Positions 15,001-21,000 of a stretch of DNA of 32,000 nucleotides are shown in pieces. Position numbers: made by a program. Position 1 is the first letter of the stretch. Each line of letters starts with the position of its first letter. The DNA lies in the NCBI RefSeq assembly GCF_042433605.1, contig NZ_JBHLVF010000032.1. The stretch is one strand, 5' to 3'. This stretch comes from Paenibacillus mendelii (lineage in GTDB: Bacteria; Bacillota; Bacilli; Paenibacillales; Paenibacillaceae).

Positions 15001-18000
15001 GCAGCATGATGTCGAGAATGACAACCTGGTATATATTATCATAATATTTTTTAAGCGCTTCGCTACCATCTAGGCAGGTGTCTACTTTATATCCGGCTTC
15101 GCTTAAAAAGACTTTGACGGTATTACATATATGCTCGTCATCCTCGACAAGCAGAATTCGTATGCCCATAAATATCCCTCCTGAAAAAGATAGCATTGTA
15201 ATCTGTAGTTTCACTGTAGATTTAAGATTTTTTTCGTTCTGATTTAAATCGTCCATCAAATGGCTTTTCCGCATCCTTGGGCATTGCCCAAGAGCGCCCA
15301 AAGCGTACCACGCCGGGGATACGGTCTTCTTCACAGAGTTTTTGAACGCGACGCTCTGAGATACCCCATCTTTCTGAGGCCTCTTTCACTGACATTGCAT
15401 CCATAATCGGCCTCCTACGAGTTTTCGTCCATTATATACGGATATACGAATAATATAAAGTTGATTTGCCCTGTGTCTACAGTTAGTTATCATTCACACA
15501 AATGAAACAACCGCCACTCACTGGTATGATATCCAGGGGGTGGCGGGCTTTGGATATGTTTCTCATGCAGACAAACAATTTCACGATACCTCGATGAAAC
15601 GTAGAACCACAATAAGTTGCATCCCTAATCAGTCCAGCAAATTGGCATCTCATTTCAAGTTTGCTGACAATTCGGGTAGACTCAAATAATTCTTGGGAAT
15701 GTGACTGCTGGAGAATAGGTATGTCTTATCATCAATTATTGCTTTGTACATAGACTAATCCCCCTTATAAGATCAACCAAAATTTGGATAGAGCTATCGT
15801 AACAAAATACATTTATTTTAGCTACCTTAAGATCAAGGGAGTATCACGTTAAACTGCCCGTTAGCTTAATAAAAACAAGGAACAGCTGCCACGGCAAACA
15901 GTTCCTTGTTTCGTTCAACTAACGTTCTAAGTTTAGCCCTCTCCTTAGTATTTGTTTGTCACTACCGATAATTGATCTGTTTGACCACCTAGCTTGTTGT
16001 CGACGGTCACATGGCCGACAGGGTAGGCAACTATAGTAATCTCGTCACCAACTGCAATATCACCGCTTGGGACAAGTCCAACAACGTCGATGATCGTACC
16101 ATCTTCGGTAGTTCCGACAACCTCGGAAAGCATACCAATCTTACCTGTTTCACTATCTGGTGGGTAGTCTTGGACAATAGCGACATATAAAGTAAACTTG
16201 ACTGGCTTTCCGTAATAATTCCATGGTGTCTTAAATACCGAACCAGCGGTGGCTTGAATGGGAGTGACTGGCTCGTTCTTAATGGCCTTCAACATGTCTA
16301 TGGCTAGATGTATGTTGCCATTCTCCAAGGCATCTAACTCAGCGGTATTCCATTCGGGATTCTTACTTCTAGCAAGTGCCGCCTCTGCTTCAGCTTTTGC
16401 TTTTGCTTCTTCTTCAGCTTTCTTCTTGGCTGTCGCCTCTGCTTCAGCTTTTGCTTTTGCTTCTTCCTTCGCCTTTTTTTCAGCTTCCTTCTTTGCTTTT
16501 TCGTCCGCCGCTGCCTTAGCATCAGCTGCATCGTTTGCATCGTTTGCATCCGATTCTGCTACGGTAGTGGTGCTCTTGCCATCTTCGATACCTTTTGTCG
16601 TTTCATCAGGTGCCGCTGCAGTTATGGTTGCTATGAACAGAACGAATGAGATGAAAGCAAAAAGTGCCGTCTTACCGCGAGAAAACTGCATCTTCGTGAA
16701 CTTGAGGAATGTGGATGGTTTGAAGATTGCAATAAGCAGATAGATGAATAAGAAAAACAAAATAATTGCAATAAAATTTAACAAGTTTGACCCCTCCGGT
16801 TATGTTTAGGAACTTTTCCCATTATATAATCAGTTTCCTTAGATTGGTAGAATTCTTTTAGGGAAAAAGTCACATGTATCTCTGATACCCATATAATAGA
16901 ATTTTATCTGGAGGGATGTAAACAGCTAAAAGGTTTAATAGTGTTCTATGCGAATATGGTATAATTTAAATAAGTACATAGTAGGGCTTGAAAGGCGGTC
17001 GGCTAATCTCCCGAAGGGAGGTGATGCCTTGGAGGTTAAGGACGTATTGACGCTCATGATCGGGTTCGGTTCGATGCTAATCGCGCTGATTTCGCTGATT
17101 GTGACAATTGTCATTACACTAACCAACAAAAAGAAATAGACCGCCTTGGACAAGGTAACGGTCTATTTCTCGATCGACTTACTATCCGATAGCCTACCGC
17201 TCTTCAAGCGGCGTGTACCCGAACCGTAGATGTTTGCCGCATCTGCGGTTCTTTTCTTTAGTCTTAGCATATCATATCCATTTAAACCGTTCAATGGCTT
17301 CAAGATACCCCCTTACTCAATTTTACCCATCTCTCTGAGCTTCATTGTGCTAGGACTCATGTCCTGCAGAACGAACCCCCGGAAAACAGCATCTCGTAAA
17401 TGCCCGGATTCTGTATGCTCCAAAAATTCAATCCAACAAGAGAAACCTGGCATTAACCACTGAACAGATCCGATCCGATCCTTATGCAGTTGCTTCGCAA
17501 CATTCATCAAAGCTCGCTTTTCTTCCGGATTAAATCCATACTCCACCATTGTTACAGGCCCTTTACTCTCTGTAACGAAGATCCGGAACGGGCGGATCGC
17601 ATAACCAACAATGCTACATTGAATTTGCTTCCGGTGTTTCCACTTAATCCATGACGTCGATCGGTGGCCAACTATGTATCGAGACTGGCTACCCTTCACT
17701 ACTTTCGCAACAATTCCCTCCCAGTGGTTCTCTTTAGTCCAATCAAACAGCCCTCGCCCATCTCCGATCGTATAAGGTGAAACTTGTATATGAGCATTAA
17801 CATTAATCAGGTTAGTAAGCAGCTGCTTTCGTTCAAGTAATGTCCGAGAAGCAACAGATTCACCCGATGCGTAAAGAATATCAAAGCACATAAAAGACAC
17901 CGGCGATTGTTTCGCCTTCGCCATTATCCGGAATGGTTGCCGCAGCTGCGCCCTGGCGCTAAAACGTTCTAGAACGGGCCTATTACCAGAAGCGTCAAGG

Positions 18001-21000
18001 CATATACCCTCTCCATCCAATATTGCCGTTCTCGCTTGTATTTGAGGGGCTAACGATTGAAACTCAGGGAATGCCCTTGTCACGTTCATACCGCCGCGTG
18101 TAAACACATCAATTCGTTCATCCTCTTTGTGAATCAAAATCCTCCAGCCATCATATTTGGCCTCGTATAGCATTCTTTGATCAGTCAACGATATTGGAAT
18201 TACCTTATGACTTGTTAGCAGCATCGGTTCAATAGCCCTAAATAGCATATCTACACCCCCTACTATATTGTGCCGTAAGCGACAATCAAAGCGCATTAGG
18301 GAATGGCTGGGTTGAGAAGGAATATCTGCAGAAAAAACGCGGGGCTGGAAAGGAAATACTGTGCTTGTCTCTTACTATTGGATGATATATAATGAATGGA
18401 ATAACAACCGTTTCACGGAAGGTACTGGAGCTTGCTTCAACTACCAGAACAACATAACAATTAATGAAGGTATTATAACAGCAAAACCTAACTCAATCAT
18501 ACCTACATAAGTGAGGTATAGGCGAGGCGAGTGACCCCCATTCCAAGCGGAATGGGGGTTTTTATTTCATACTTCCATCCCTACTGTATCCACTCCTGCA
18601 GCGTTCGTTTTACCTTTTTCCCTTCTTGAACACACTTATCAATCGCATGGGCCAACATAACAGGAATGGTTATGAAATCATCTGGACTTCGAGCATCCAG
18701 GAATCTGCAAAGCTCTCGCAGCTGCTTAGTTCGTTTGATATCCAAGTCTTTTCGGATCTGATCGCCAAGAATCGGATACATGATGTCTTTCCTTTTTATC
18801 GCCGTCCGGATCAACAACGATGTGGCCATGGCCACAGAGCAATCAAGCGCATAAGCAAGCGCGGCAAATCTTTGATGTTCGAATTCGTAAAACTTCATAA
18901 ATAGACGCTGCGAACCAATATCTTCAATCCGGAACGGATCCTTAGTCGAGTCACCGAAACAATAATGATTATCTTCGTAAACAAGATCCCGTCTGAAATA
19001 AACTCGGATTTCCTCAAGCATTTTTCGAGATTGAAAACCATCACGACACAGCAGCTCGCCAACAGACTTCATTGGCAAGTCGCAGATATAACTTATTCGT
19101 GAAACCATCTCATAGGTGTCCGTATCCAGGAAGGGCGCTACTGCCCTCTTCTTATCACTTCTGACTTTCCGTTCTCTCCCCTCACTCATATGAAGCCCCT
19201 CTTTCCTGCATCTAGGCTGGCAACAGTGTTGATATGTTGCGAGCTTATTTATTTTATATGCTAGGGGAGAGTGGATGTATGACAGGATCCAATCTTGTAC
19301 ATAATGATTAATGGGGGTGGAAATTATGTCCATGAGTGAAAAGAAAGCTGAAGCGTTGGTAAAGGATATCCTTCAATCCGTTTCACAAAACGGAATTAAA
19401 ATACGAAAGAAGCCGAAGCATAAATAACACTGCTTCGACTTCTTATTTTTTGCGTGCGGGACTGCACCCGTTCCCTCAGTCTAATCCAAAGGGAAACAGT
19501 GCTTCATCCACAACTTTACGGAGCTTCCCTTTATGTACGTCGGATAAGGTTCTCAGTTGATCATAAATCACTAAGGGCATAACATACAGTCTGACGTTAC
19601 TATAGCTGGTAGTCTCTTTTACCTCCAACAACCCTCGTTCTGCCAAGTTCAGAACAACTTCGTTGTAAGCATCAGACAAGTCACTACCACCCAAATAATT
19701 CCTCTTTTCCCAAGCTTGTATCGAGGGTAGAGTTTGATTGGCCATCCACCGGTATCCGAATTGCCTGTTTCCAGTATCAAGAGTATATGCCAAAAGTAAA
19801 ATTTCATTTGAAGTCAATTTACCCGACTCCAATAAATCTTTCAAGGGTTCCACAATATCATGTCCGGAGTTGCCGGTCGGTACATTTTCTTGTTCGTCTG
19901 CTCGTTTTTTCTTGTATTGCATGACCTTCTTATAGAGATGGTCAATGATTTTCTGTCTATCATACGCGGAATAAATACCCTTATAGCCATATTCTTTTTT
20001 GAATTCGTCAACCTTAGCAAGTTGGCTGAAATCGGCATTTCTTTGAACGGCTTTGTCTACAAAGTAAAGCATGACCTCCTTTCCTTTTTCAATAAAGATA
20101 CTGACTTCTTCTAACGTTCCAGATGAATGCGTCATAGTAGGCGTCCCTAATTTAGTCCAGAACACGCCAATGAGAATATCGCACTTATTGACTAATTGCT
20201 CATTTATAATTTGCTGTGGGTCGCTTCCTCGGTAAGTCGGAACAACATCCTCTTCCCAACGACCCGGGAGTAGGATCGTTTCTAATTCCTCCGCAAACCG
20301 ACTATTCCACATAAAAATGACCTCTTCTATTTCGTTACGTTCCTGATTCACATCAGAGGGAGAAGCAATCAAAACACGTAATACTTCCGCTCTAAAGCTC
20401 AACCACTATCCCTCCAAATAACTGTAGTAGACACATTTTTGTTGTTCGATAAACTTACTACCTATTTTACCACTAATAGGATAGTGAGTATAACTGCTGC
20501 CCGTTAGTCATCCATGCCCCTTCCAGGGCACCACAAAGTAACGACGTTGGCCATTCTTCTTTTCTTCAACCTTCCCTTTTTTCCCAGCCCAGCGTTAAAT
20601 GTTGAAGACTGCGGTCAATTTAGACCCGCAGCCTCCCCCATTCCAACGTAAGCGTCAAACTCTTCCCACCTTCAACTACTACGCTCGCTATGAGATCATG
20701 AGTTTAACCTGAGTCTGGAGGATAGCTCATGAATGCTAGAGAACAACGCAGACAAGATTGGCAAGTACGCATCGCAGCTTATCGGGCAAGTGGCCTCACA
20801 ATGAAAGCTTGGTGCAACGCAAATCAATGCTCTATCGAACAATTGAAATATTGGCTTTACAAAATAAAACGTGGATCATCCCAGACTACTCCAGACCCAA
20901 AGACTTCTCCCGTACAATTTGTACCTCTTACTGCTGTTGATCCACCGGGCAGCGTTTCTTCTGATCCTTCTCTAATCCTTCATATCGGTGAGATCCGTGT

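Follow-up and report, generated by a model that had tools for sequence, protein, structure and literature searches.

A candidate single-gene NADase defence of the DUF4062(NIR)+AUX kind within a mosaic of mobile-DNA cargo in Paenibacillus mendelii

A preliminary description of 32,000 nucleotides of Paenibacillus mendelii DNA (contig NZ_JBHLVF010000032.1 of assembly GCF_042433605.1; the whole stretch is called the window) proposed that three genes form a defence or conflict module. These genes encode a 308-aa TIR-like protein (gene A, 19476-20402, minus strand), an uncharacterised 202-aa protein (gene B, 18581-19189, minus strand) and a stand-alone ATP-dependent DNA ligase (gene C, 17313-18248, minus strand). 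We re-examined this proposal computationally, and we consider that gene A is probably a monocistronic, self-contained anti-phage defence gene of the DUF4062(NIR)+AUX kind and that the block is otherwise a mosaic of independent mobile-DNA cargo. The idea of a defence candidate thus holds for the 308-aa protein, given its DUF4062 homology, its relatives' defence, prophage and plasmid neighbours and the preprints of 2026, and is not supported for the three-gene module. Of what is used in this argument, the present analysis itself shows the gene structures, the families by homology, which residues are conserved, the folds predicted, the absence of co-occurrence and where homology ends. The kind of single-gene defence to which A belongs was already described in 2026; what is new is the Bacillales lineage, a hitherto unnamed family whose roughly 60 clusters all have hypothetical as their annotation, and which is now placed among the DUF4062/NIR NADase defences. 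In addition, the analysis corrects an attractive but unsupported model of a three-gene effector and repair system.

DUF4062 has been described as a TIR-like NADase domain. Osinski et al. reported that Swarozyc, a single-gene DUF4062+AUX system, defends E. coli by abortive infection, and that this defence needs E97 and an AUX domain of the helix-turn-helix (HTH)/winged type which binds the phage portal (2026, 10.64898/2026.05.01.722283). Ibarra-Chavez et al. described Evangelion on the S. aureus plasmid pMW2, with 447 positive plasmids, 159 of them from Enterococcus, and showed that its defence requires F11, E87, W162 and AUX (2026, 10.64898/2026.06.25.731849). Le Mouellic et al. (2026 preprint) renamed the domain NIR and reported that NAD+ is depleted by an Avs2 protein as well as by Vulcan and Vesta, both new systems. 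According to the 2026 preprints, the catalytic Glu of DUF4062/NIR proteins is E97 in KpSwz (Swarozyc), E98 in Vulcan, E87 in Eva01 (Evangelion) and E108 in PsAvs2. Excerpts of the published work on SpbK, from ICEBs1 of B. subtilis, describe a single-gene, NAD+-degrading abortive infection system triggered by the portal-like protein YonE of SPbeta (PMC8880864, PMC11984713, PMC12847820).

Gene A and its AUX domain

Gene A starts with TTG, 8 nt downstream of a GGAGGG ribosome-binding site (RBS). Its family comprises about 60 full-length Bacillales proteins or clusters, and all 59 members compared start with MSF.AEVL. The AlphaFold2 (AF2) model of the protein, with a predicted local distance difference test (pLDDT) score of 86, has three parts. 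A DUF4062/NIR TIR-like core occupies residues ~1-120 (20043-20402, minus strand), as defined by invariant columns and the model; its strands 6-13, 42-48, 76-81 and 109-114 alternate with helices. A stalk-like linker follows (residues 125-172; 19887-20030, minus strand), in which a short strand connects one helix to a second, long one, and residues 174-183 beyond it are disordered in the model. The C-terminal AUX domain, a putative sensor, covers residues 186-302 (19497-19847, minus strand) and is made of helices and a beta hairpin. This arrangement is winged-helix-like, in agreement with the wHTH-like C-terminal region noticed at first.

The core carries the complete DUF4062/TIR-like signature that had been read from the translation: VLIASPSD, ER, CDILIGVFW, KLGT and SGTLEE are all found in the 308-aa protein, and the signature positions are invariant or nearly so in the 59 family members, except L11 and L85. 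Residues S14, D17, W49, E50, Q63, D75, G95, E98 and E99 are invariant in these sequences. E99 aligns with E87 of Eva01 in an SxT-x-x-E context and is the putative catalytic Glu. When family members were compared with PF13271 (DUF4062), 53 of the 59 matched at E <= 0.01, with a best value of 2.2e-7. With PADLOC, the N-terminal 170 residues of A match positions 4-177 of the PDC-S60 profile at 5.6e-28. Over core and AUX together (280 aa), A is 31% identical to a DUF4062 protein carried by about 155 Enterococcus plasmids (BLASTP E = 4e-35). Proteobacterial proteins that are 40-49% identical in the core have different C-termini. Searches of the Protein Data Bank (PDB) by sequence with family profiles of A and B returned nothing significant, and tblastn of A against 50,697 phage records gave no match.

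We then considered the AUX domain by itself. No Pfam family matches it, even at E <= 5. We assembled 85 loci encoding a homologue of A, fetched with up to 10 kb on each side, and 14 of them hold a full-length homologue; a hidden Markov model (HMM) of AUX run over these loci detects the full-length Bacillales members alone. Searched against 1.84 billion representative proteins, AUX was found in 81 proteins, where it is C-terminal. Among the 66 that were scanned for their other domains, 38 have TIR_2, 14 match TIR and three have DUF4062, and one each has a nucleoside deoxyribosyltransferase, a ThsB-type TIR and a CAP12-type TIR domain. PADLOC was run on 10 AUX proteins, and nine of them have their best match in the SpbK model, to its TIR part at positions 134-308 (one at no better than E = 3.8e-4); this part lies at the N-terminus in seven of the nine. 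Outside gene A, AUX is thus for the most part fused to SpbK-like TIR domains. The TIR+AUX proteins have 380-540 aa and come from metagenomes and one Treponema metagenome-assembled genome; their architecture matches no PADLOC model over its full length.

The same C-terminal module thus stands behind either TIR or DUF4062, and this is the pattern expected of a sensor with interchangeable NADase effectors. AUX would accordingly be the sensor domain of A, and it appears to be a portable one, swapped between SpbK-type TIR and DUF4062 effectors. If this is true, portable AUX would define a Bacillota defence lineage that is absent from the three 2026 DUF4062 preprints. Its position behind SpbK-like TIR domains is also independent support for the view of DUF4062 and TIR as interchangeable NAD+-degrading effectors on a common sensor.

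Gene A as the unit, and alternative readings

The three minus-strand open reading frames (ORFs) are present as first described, with 286 nt between A and B; the next gap, from B to gene C, measures 284 or 332 nt according to which ligase start is taken. The preliminary description had considered that gaps of 290-330 bp containing other transcription signals made a single operon far from obvious. This was borne out, since A is followed by a strong intrinsic terminator of its own (19397-19444, minus strand) and the B-C gap holds a hairpin and a promoter-like site. The terminator of A consists of a 14-bp stem followed by UUUCGUAUUUU; it folds at -29.7 kcal/mol (z = -4.2), and none of 200 shuffled sequences folds as well.

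We also looked for co-occurrence of the three genes. B was not found within 10 kb of an A homologue at any of the 85 loci, and a ligase occurs at two of them, with 29-32% identity to C. Among 295 ORFs flanking the 14 full-length A homologues, no family is common to three or more loci. When 60 relatives were searched as whole genomes, A was present in one (the N-terminal domain alone) and B in none, and the ligase reached 37-43% identity at best. The nearest homologues of A (87% and 77%), B (76%) and C (45% and 42%) all have different neighbours. The family of A is patchy, with members in four of 400 sampled Bacilli genomes; this sample added a single full-length homologue and therefore could not enlarge the co-occurrence test.

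The locus encoding the 87% relative, L024, shows where the unit ends. At the DNA level it is homologous to the window over 20484-19488 (A with 83 nt upstream, 90%) and 20554-20492 (86%), and the homology stops at the stop codon of A. The second stretch is a junction box (20492-20554, plus strand), with the core CTGCCCGTTAG at 20497-20507; it lies about 95 nt upstream of A, forms the 5' border of the A unit and corresponds to L024:88-148. Homology limited to A and this 5' box indicates that A alone behaves as the unit. In L024 a 1.6-kb insert, consisting of a second box and a hydrolase gene, splits the two homologous stretches, and the cores are at 133-143 and 404-414. This single-gene insert of a box and a nucleoside hydrolase gene has its place precisely at the box lying upstream of the A homologue, which is the picture that insertion of cassettes at a specific site would give.

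The core CTGCCCGTTAG is a genuine dispersed repeat. It occurs five times in the window (686, 1596, 15854, 20497 and 23194, the first and the last with one mismatch) against 0.43 expected, and 38 exact copies are present genome-wide against about 4 expected. At 15847-15923 (plus strand) the core, at 15854-15864, is part of a module with a hairpin that marks the left border of the strain-specific block and has 91-95% identical copies on contigs C34 and C46.

The neighbours of A homologues are in large part defence or phage genes. The 87% homologue follows the nucleoside hydrolase gene (inosine-uridine) just mentioned, and the 77% homologue (L025), which is on a phage-like contig, is preceded by Dam and Mom-like genes. 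The 64% homologue (L006) adjoins Shedu, the 62% homologue (L007) stands between Hachiman and a CBASS operon beside Tn7, and the 50% homologue (L008) is in a prophage, near HicAB and terminase. On an Enterococcus plasmid (L118) the homologue adjoins a type I restriction-modification system and RelE. Locus L007 (Parageobacillus thermoglucosidasius CP184786.1:172354-185301) forms a compact defence island with Hachiman (HamA and a helicase), the A homologue, CBASS (Cap15 and a CD-NTase), a PemK toxin and tnsA and tnsB of Tn7. In the window, A lies between IS66 and other cargo.

On this basis A is very probably an anti-phage defence gene, and we infer its NADase activity, its defence phenotype and its trigger. 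The winged-helix-like AUX would recognise a trigger produced by the phage; analogy points to a structural protein, for instance the portal, or to an intermediate of replication or recombination. This recognition would free the autoinhibited N-terminal TIR-like NADase, and the resulting NAD+ depletion would halt the infected cell, so that phage propagation is aborted. Gene A is a ready candidate for testing in work with Bacillus and Paenibacillus phages.

Several observations weigh against this picture. The match of A itself to PF13271 is weak, at 17.5 bits, under the gathering cut-off of 24.7. Foldseek of the whole model against the PDB matches the core region alone, and the flavodoxin- or TIR-like folds returned there are all weak, at E ~1e-2, among them DNPH1, the CMP N-glycosidase MilB and the plant TIR domains of RPS4/RRS1 and L6. 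By sequence A does not fall in the Eva01 clade, as BLASTP against Eva01 of pMW2 gives a marginal E = 0.006 over 78 residues, in the core alone. The Eva02 lineage of Evangelion gave no protection against the phages tested (10.64898/2026.06.25.731849). No known defence system stands next to A in the window, and the role proposed below for B draws on a predicted fold with Foldseek E >= 0.08. Finally, at L030, a locus with a full-length A, an ATP-dependent ligase lies about 2.7 kb away on the opposite strand, with two unrelated genes between; this case among the 14 loci may reflect a loose association of A with ligases. As to Eva01, A is related to the Enterococcus plasmid protein and barely similar to Eva01, so it represents a separate lineage of the same kind.

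An unlikely alternative is that the 4.6 kb between the boxes (15854-20497) is one multi-gene mobile cassette, whose genes travel together and do not work together. Junction cores bracket the block and are in large excess genome-wide, the insertion in L024 falls exactly at a box, and the block is strain-specific among 29 same-genus genomes. However, no second copy of the block or of a gene pair was found, and a type I toxin locus with the 3' end of the ligase gene is all that recurs, on contig C64. The homology of the nearest A relative ends at the stop codon, again with A alone as the unit, and there is no recombinase in the window.

We regard it as quite improbable that A is non-immune, that is, a protein like nucleoside 2-deoxyribosyltransferases or nucleotide N-glycosidases joined to a DNA-binding winged helix, which would serve nucleotide salvage or else be a transcription factor that senses a metabolite. 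The DNPH1 and MilB matches are as weak as the TIR ones, some relatives are named "nucleoside 2-deoxyribosyltransferase" in databases, and the closest homologue adjoins the inosine-uridine nucleoside hydrolase gene; yet that hydrolase is a separate inserted cassette with its own junction box. Furthermore, the family is found in about 1% of genomes, patchily and linked to mobile elements, it has defence systems and prophage genes for neighbours, TIR NADase domains of the SpbK type occur with the same AUX, and NADase activity was shown experimentally for several DUF4062 lineages (2026 preprints).

The least probable reading is the functional conflict module itself. Bacterial LigA requires NAD+ and is essential. 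In such a module the NADase would starve the NAD+-dependent LigA, the ATP-dependent ligase would seal host or element DNA and the ribbon-helix-helix protein B would be the regulator; a role of the ligase as an NAD+-independent sealing backup during NADase defence, limiting self-damage or allowing recovery, is likewise very doubtful. The biochemical logic is coherent given the need of LigA for NAD+, the three genes are co-oriented between two copies of the junction motif, L030 offers a second full-length A locus with a ligase, and a Paenibacillus plasmid carries a B homologue at 2 kb from a ligase. Nevertheless, in no locus but the window do close relatives from any two of the three families stand together; the ligases of L030 and L009 are just 28-29% identical, with unrelated genes between them and A or B. 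Roughly 1.5% of this genome is no more than 10 kb away from a ligase gene, which gives a probability of ~0.18 for at least one ligase in the 13 other loci, so that the single case of L030 is unremarkable and at chance level. The terminator of A, the end of its homology at the stop codon and the single-gene action of published DUF4062 systems all speak for A acting by itself. Finally, the suggestion that a base-removing effector is paired with a nick-sealing enzyme loses its premise, because the likely substrate is NAD+ and not DNA bases.

The other genes and the borders of the block

The ligase gene (C) has an ORF that extends to 18296 (327 aa). Its start is likely 18248 (311 aa), which has the better RBS and is the choice of the gene caller. 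The protein matches PF01068 at 7.5e-33 and TIGR02779 at 7.4e-48 (163 bits, under the cut-off of 228). We found in its translation KYDG, FDIL, EGIVAK and WIKWK, which correspond to the KxDG adenylation motif and motifs III-V, and the enzyme is thus probably active, judging from its sequence. It is indeed the minimal ATP-dependent ligase without Ku or LigD accessory domains that had been claimed, with 311 aa and a ligase domain alone. A context of non-homologous end joining (adjacent Ku, fused polymerase or phosphoesterase) was not found for it; the sole Ku gene of the genome is on contig C28, with LigD, and the genome also encodes two other stand-alone ligases. Among 5.8 billion protein clusters, the closest relatives are 45% and then 42% identical; several are plasmid-borne, and those at 45% and 42% stand in other plasmid or mobile contexts. 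In same-genus genomes the best matches (37-43%) correspond to a different chromosomal paralogue, which is also present here, on contig C37.

Convergent with the ligase gene is a type I toxin locus (16948-17251, plus strand), with a Hol_Tox ORF at 16948-17139, a BsrG-like RNA at 16974-17248 and a terminator at 17221-17251. The Hol_Tox peptide matches PF16935 with 46.4 bits, and the Rfam BsrG model matches at E = 1.3e-5, under its gathering score. Same-genus genomes have related copies of the locus (70-78%) in several places. Contig C64 carries at 366740-367519 (L124:6741-7520) a 93% copy of the toxin locus together with the last ~113 codons of the ligase gene, which are frameshifted. It has the look of a decayed remnant of some related element and indicates that the ligase gene and the toxin locus once travelled together. 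We infer the roles of both B and C. Gene C would have been acquired horizontally and encode an ATP-dependent nick-sealing ligase that is catalytically intact and of the plasmid-carried kind, kept with a type I toxin locus.

In the gap that separates B from the ligase gene, a strong GC hairpin with a 12-bp GC-rich stem (18533-18560, plus strand) has a T-run on the plus strand alone. A promoter-like site, TTGTCT-17-TATAAT at 18365-18393 on the plus strand, faces this terminator at a distance of about 165 nt. The stretch 18365-18565 (plus strand) could be a small RNA ending at the terminator; it is not conserved beside the 76% B homologue (L026).

The start of B is M49 of a 250-aa ORF, as backed by the family alignment and by the site AAGAGGGG. 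B had been described as a protein of unknown family, and no Pfam, PHROG or PADLOC family matches it; the NCBIfam PrgO model gives E = 0.011, far under its cut-off. Its own family has at least 32 clusters and is present on 117 plasmids, chiefly of Bacillus and Priestia. The N-terminus bears a conserved motif, RKVRSDKKR, of which RSDKK, in the first strand-helix-helix unit, is invariant. In the AF2 model (pLDDT 84), strand 14-17 is followed by helices 23-36 and 40-53, and strand 98-101 by helices 102-115 and 119-131. A basic strand thus precedes each of the two units, and four further helices follow. The model and the family alignment suggest a tandem ribbon-helix-helix-like DNA-binding protein. 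Foldseek, with weak matches throughout (target TM 0.55-0.70, E 0.08-0.8), ranks highest the F-plasmid relaxosome's small DNA-binding chains (PDB 9f0x-9f12) together with DndE.

The 76% homologue of B lies beside an integrase and a MazE/PIN pair, and more distant homologues are on plasmids, for example after parA; no relaxase was found near B. From the modelled fold and these contexts, we think it somewhat probable that B is a tandem ribbon-helix-helix protein of plasmid origin, probably a regulator or an accessory factor for maintenance or transfer. It would be a sequence-specific DNA binder, folded as a tandem ribbon-helix-helix pseudo-dimer, and would serve as a regulator, or a maintenance or relaxosome-type accessory factor, of a plasmid or mobile element; its family resides on Bacillaceae and Paenibacillus plasmids. 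Two other possibilities were rejected. B as an antitoxin or regulator of A was set aside because of its absence from all 85 A loci. A link with a tyrosine recombinase, located 0.1-1.1 kb downstream in L026 and L121, was also dropped, as these recombinases show no relation to each other and the association is not repeated elsewhere.

The block was said to have a low GC content, and this is so: 43.3%, and 41.1% in gene A, compared with a genome value of 50.4%. The window covers the first 32 kb of the 37.3-kb contig C27 of a genome of 8.13 Mb in 73 contigs, and since the whole contig has a low GC content (45.6% over 37 kb), it looks accessory throughout. The 5 kb from 15610 to 20645 had no counterpart among the 29 same-genus genomes searched and are therefore strain-specific. 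Besides A, B, the ligase gene and the type I toxin locus, they contain a fifth item, a membrane protein (15945-16784) that has a Lys/Ala/Glu-rich repeat. The reported flanks of the block were also recovered, namely junction cores at 15854 and 20497 and an IS66-family element (orfA, TnpB and DDE transposase by Pfam; ~20645-23080, plus strand) that forms the right border. The end sequence of IS66 is GTAAGCGTC, beginning at ~20649. The element is bracketed by the junction cores at 20497 and 23194, and copies of it that are 90% identical occur in the same-genus genome G017.

To the left of the block lies a complete van-type glycopeptide-resistance cluster (7845-15334, minus strand), with vanR, vanS, vanZ-like, vanY-like carboxypeptidase, vanW, vanH, D-Ala-D-Lac-type ligase (of the D-Ala-D-Ala ligase family) and vanX genes. 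This region is 96-97% identical to a region of the same-genus genome G023, and the homology stops at position 15609 of the window. In G023 the flank past the van region contains ordinary transporter genes and an IS110 fragment; no conjugation genes were found there and hence no sign of an integrative element. Directly upstream of vanR, at 15222-15404 (minus strand), is a gene for a 60-aa HTH_17/HTH_59 (excisionase-like) protein, whose DNA is 66-67% similar to an HTH gene of about 68 Enterococcus plasmids. On an Alicyclobacillus plasmid (L127), another HTH_59 gene is found close to the ligase homologue.

Comparison with known systems

The ligase C resembles the plasmid ligases of Bacillota (Lysinibacillus sphaericus pBsph-type, and a plasmid of Alicyclobacillus fastidiosus). 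These have about 300 aa, share 39-42% identity with C and are found in plasmid or mobile contexts; like C, they have a nucleotidyltransferase domain, a weak C-terminal PF04679 match (under the cut-off) and no Ku, polymerase or phosphoesterase domains. C differs from them in being chromosomally embedded and adjoining a type I toxin locus. Gene B, as predicted from its model, would share with the small chains of the F-plasmid relaxosome and with DndE the beta-alpha-alpha units and the basic N-terminal strand, and it has a plasmid association as well, whereas there is no sequence similarity between them and B continues at its C-terminus with an additional helical domain of about 70 residues.

For gene A, the PDC-S60 profile has 906 positions, of which the remaining 730 have no counterpart in A; A and PDC-S60 thus share the effector domain alone. 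SpbK, as presented in the excerpts cited above, is like A a single-gene abortive-infection NADase of a mobile element in Bacillota. It differs in that its TIR domain is C-terminal, with a different N-terminal part, whereas A has DUF4062 and not a canonical TIR domain.

Swarozyc (KpSwz), compared by its description, is closer to A in its layout: a single polypeptide of about 300 aa with an N-terminal DUF4062, a catalytic Glu at ~97-99 and an HTH/winged AUX. A small strand or sheet with a helical stalk after the core also seems to be common to both, again going by the description. Like the A family, Swarozyc occurs as a stand-alone gene in defence islands. In contrast, the AUX of the A family is found in Bacillota-type proteins alone among the loci examined, and the host of A is a Gram-positive Paenibacillus. 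The trigger of KpSwz is the portal, and that of A would be comparable by analogy.

Eva01 differs from A at several positions. Residue 11 is F in Eva01 and L in A, and of the Q/W/E motif A keeps Q alone (Q63); in addition, the AUX domains of the two proteins are unrelated. On pMW2 (3559-4837, L125) a type I Fst toxin gene immediately precedes Eva01, and the type I toxin locus of the window is about 2.3 kb downstream of A; these toxin genes are possibly merely shared plasmid-style cargo. Like A, Evangelion is a one-gene DUF4062 core with an AUX domain, which retains the catalytic Glu (E87 in Eva01, E99 in A) and resides on mobile DNA near resistance genes. Indeed, gene A is 4 kb from the van operon in a cassette-rich accessory region, which fits the reported travel of such genes with resistance determinants. 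The number of Enterococcus plasmids with an A-related protein, about 155, is also close to the 159 Enterococcus plasmids that are positive for Evangelion.

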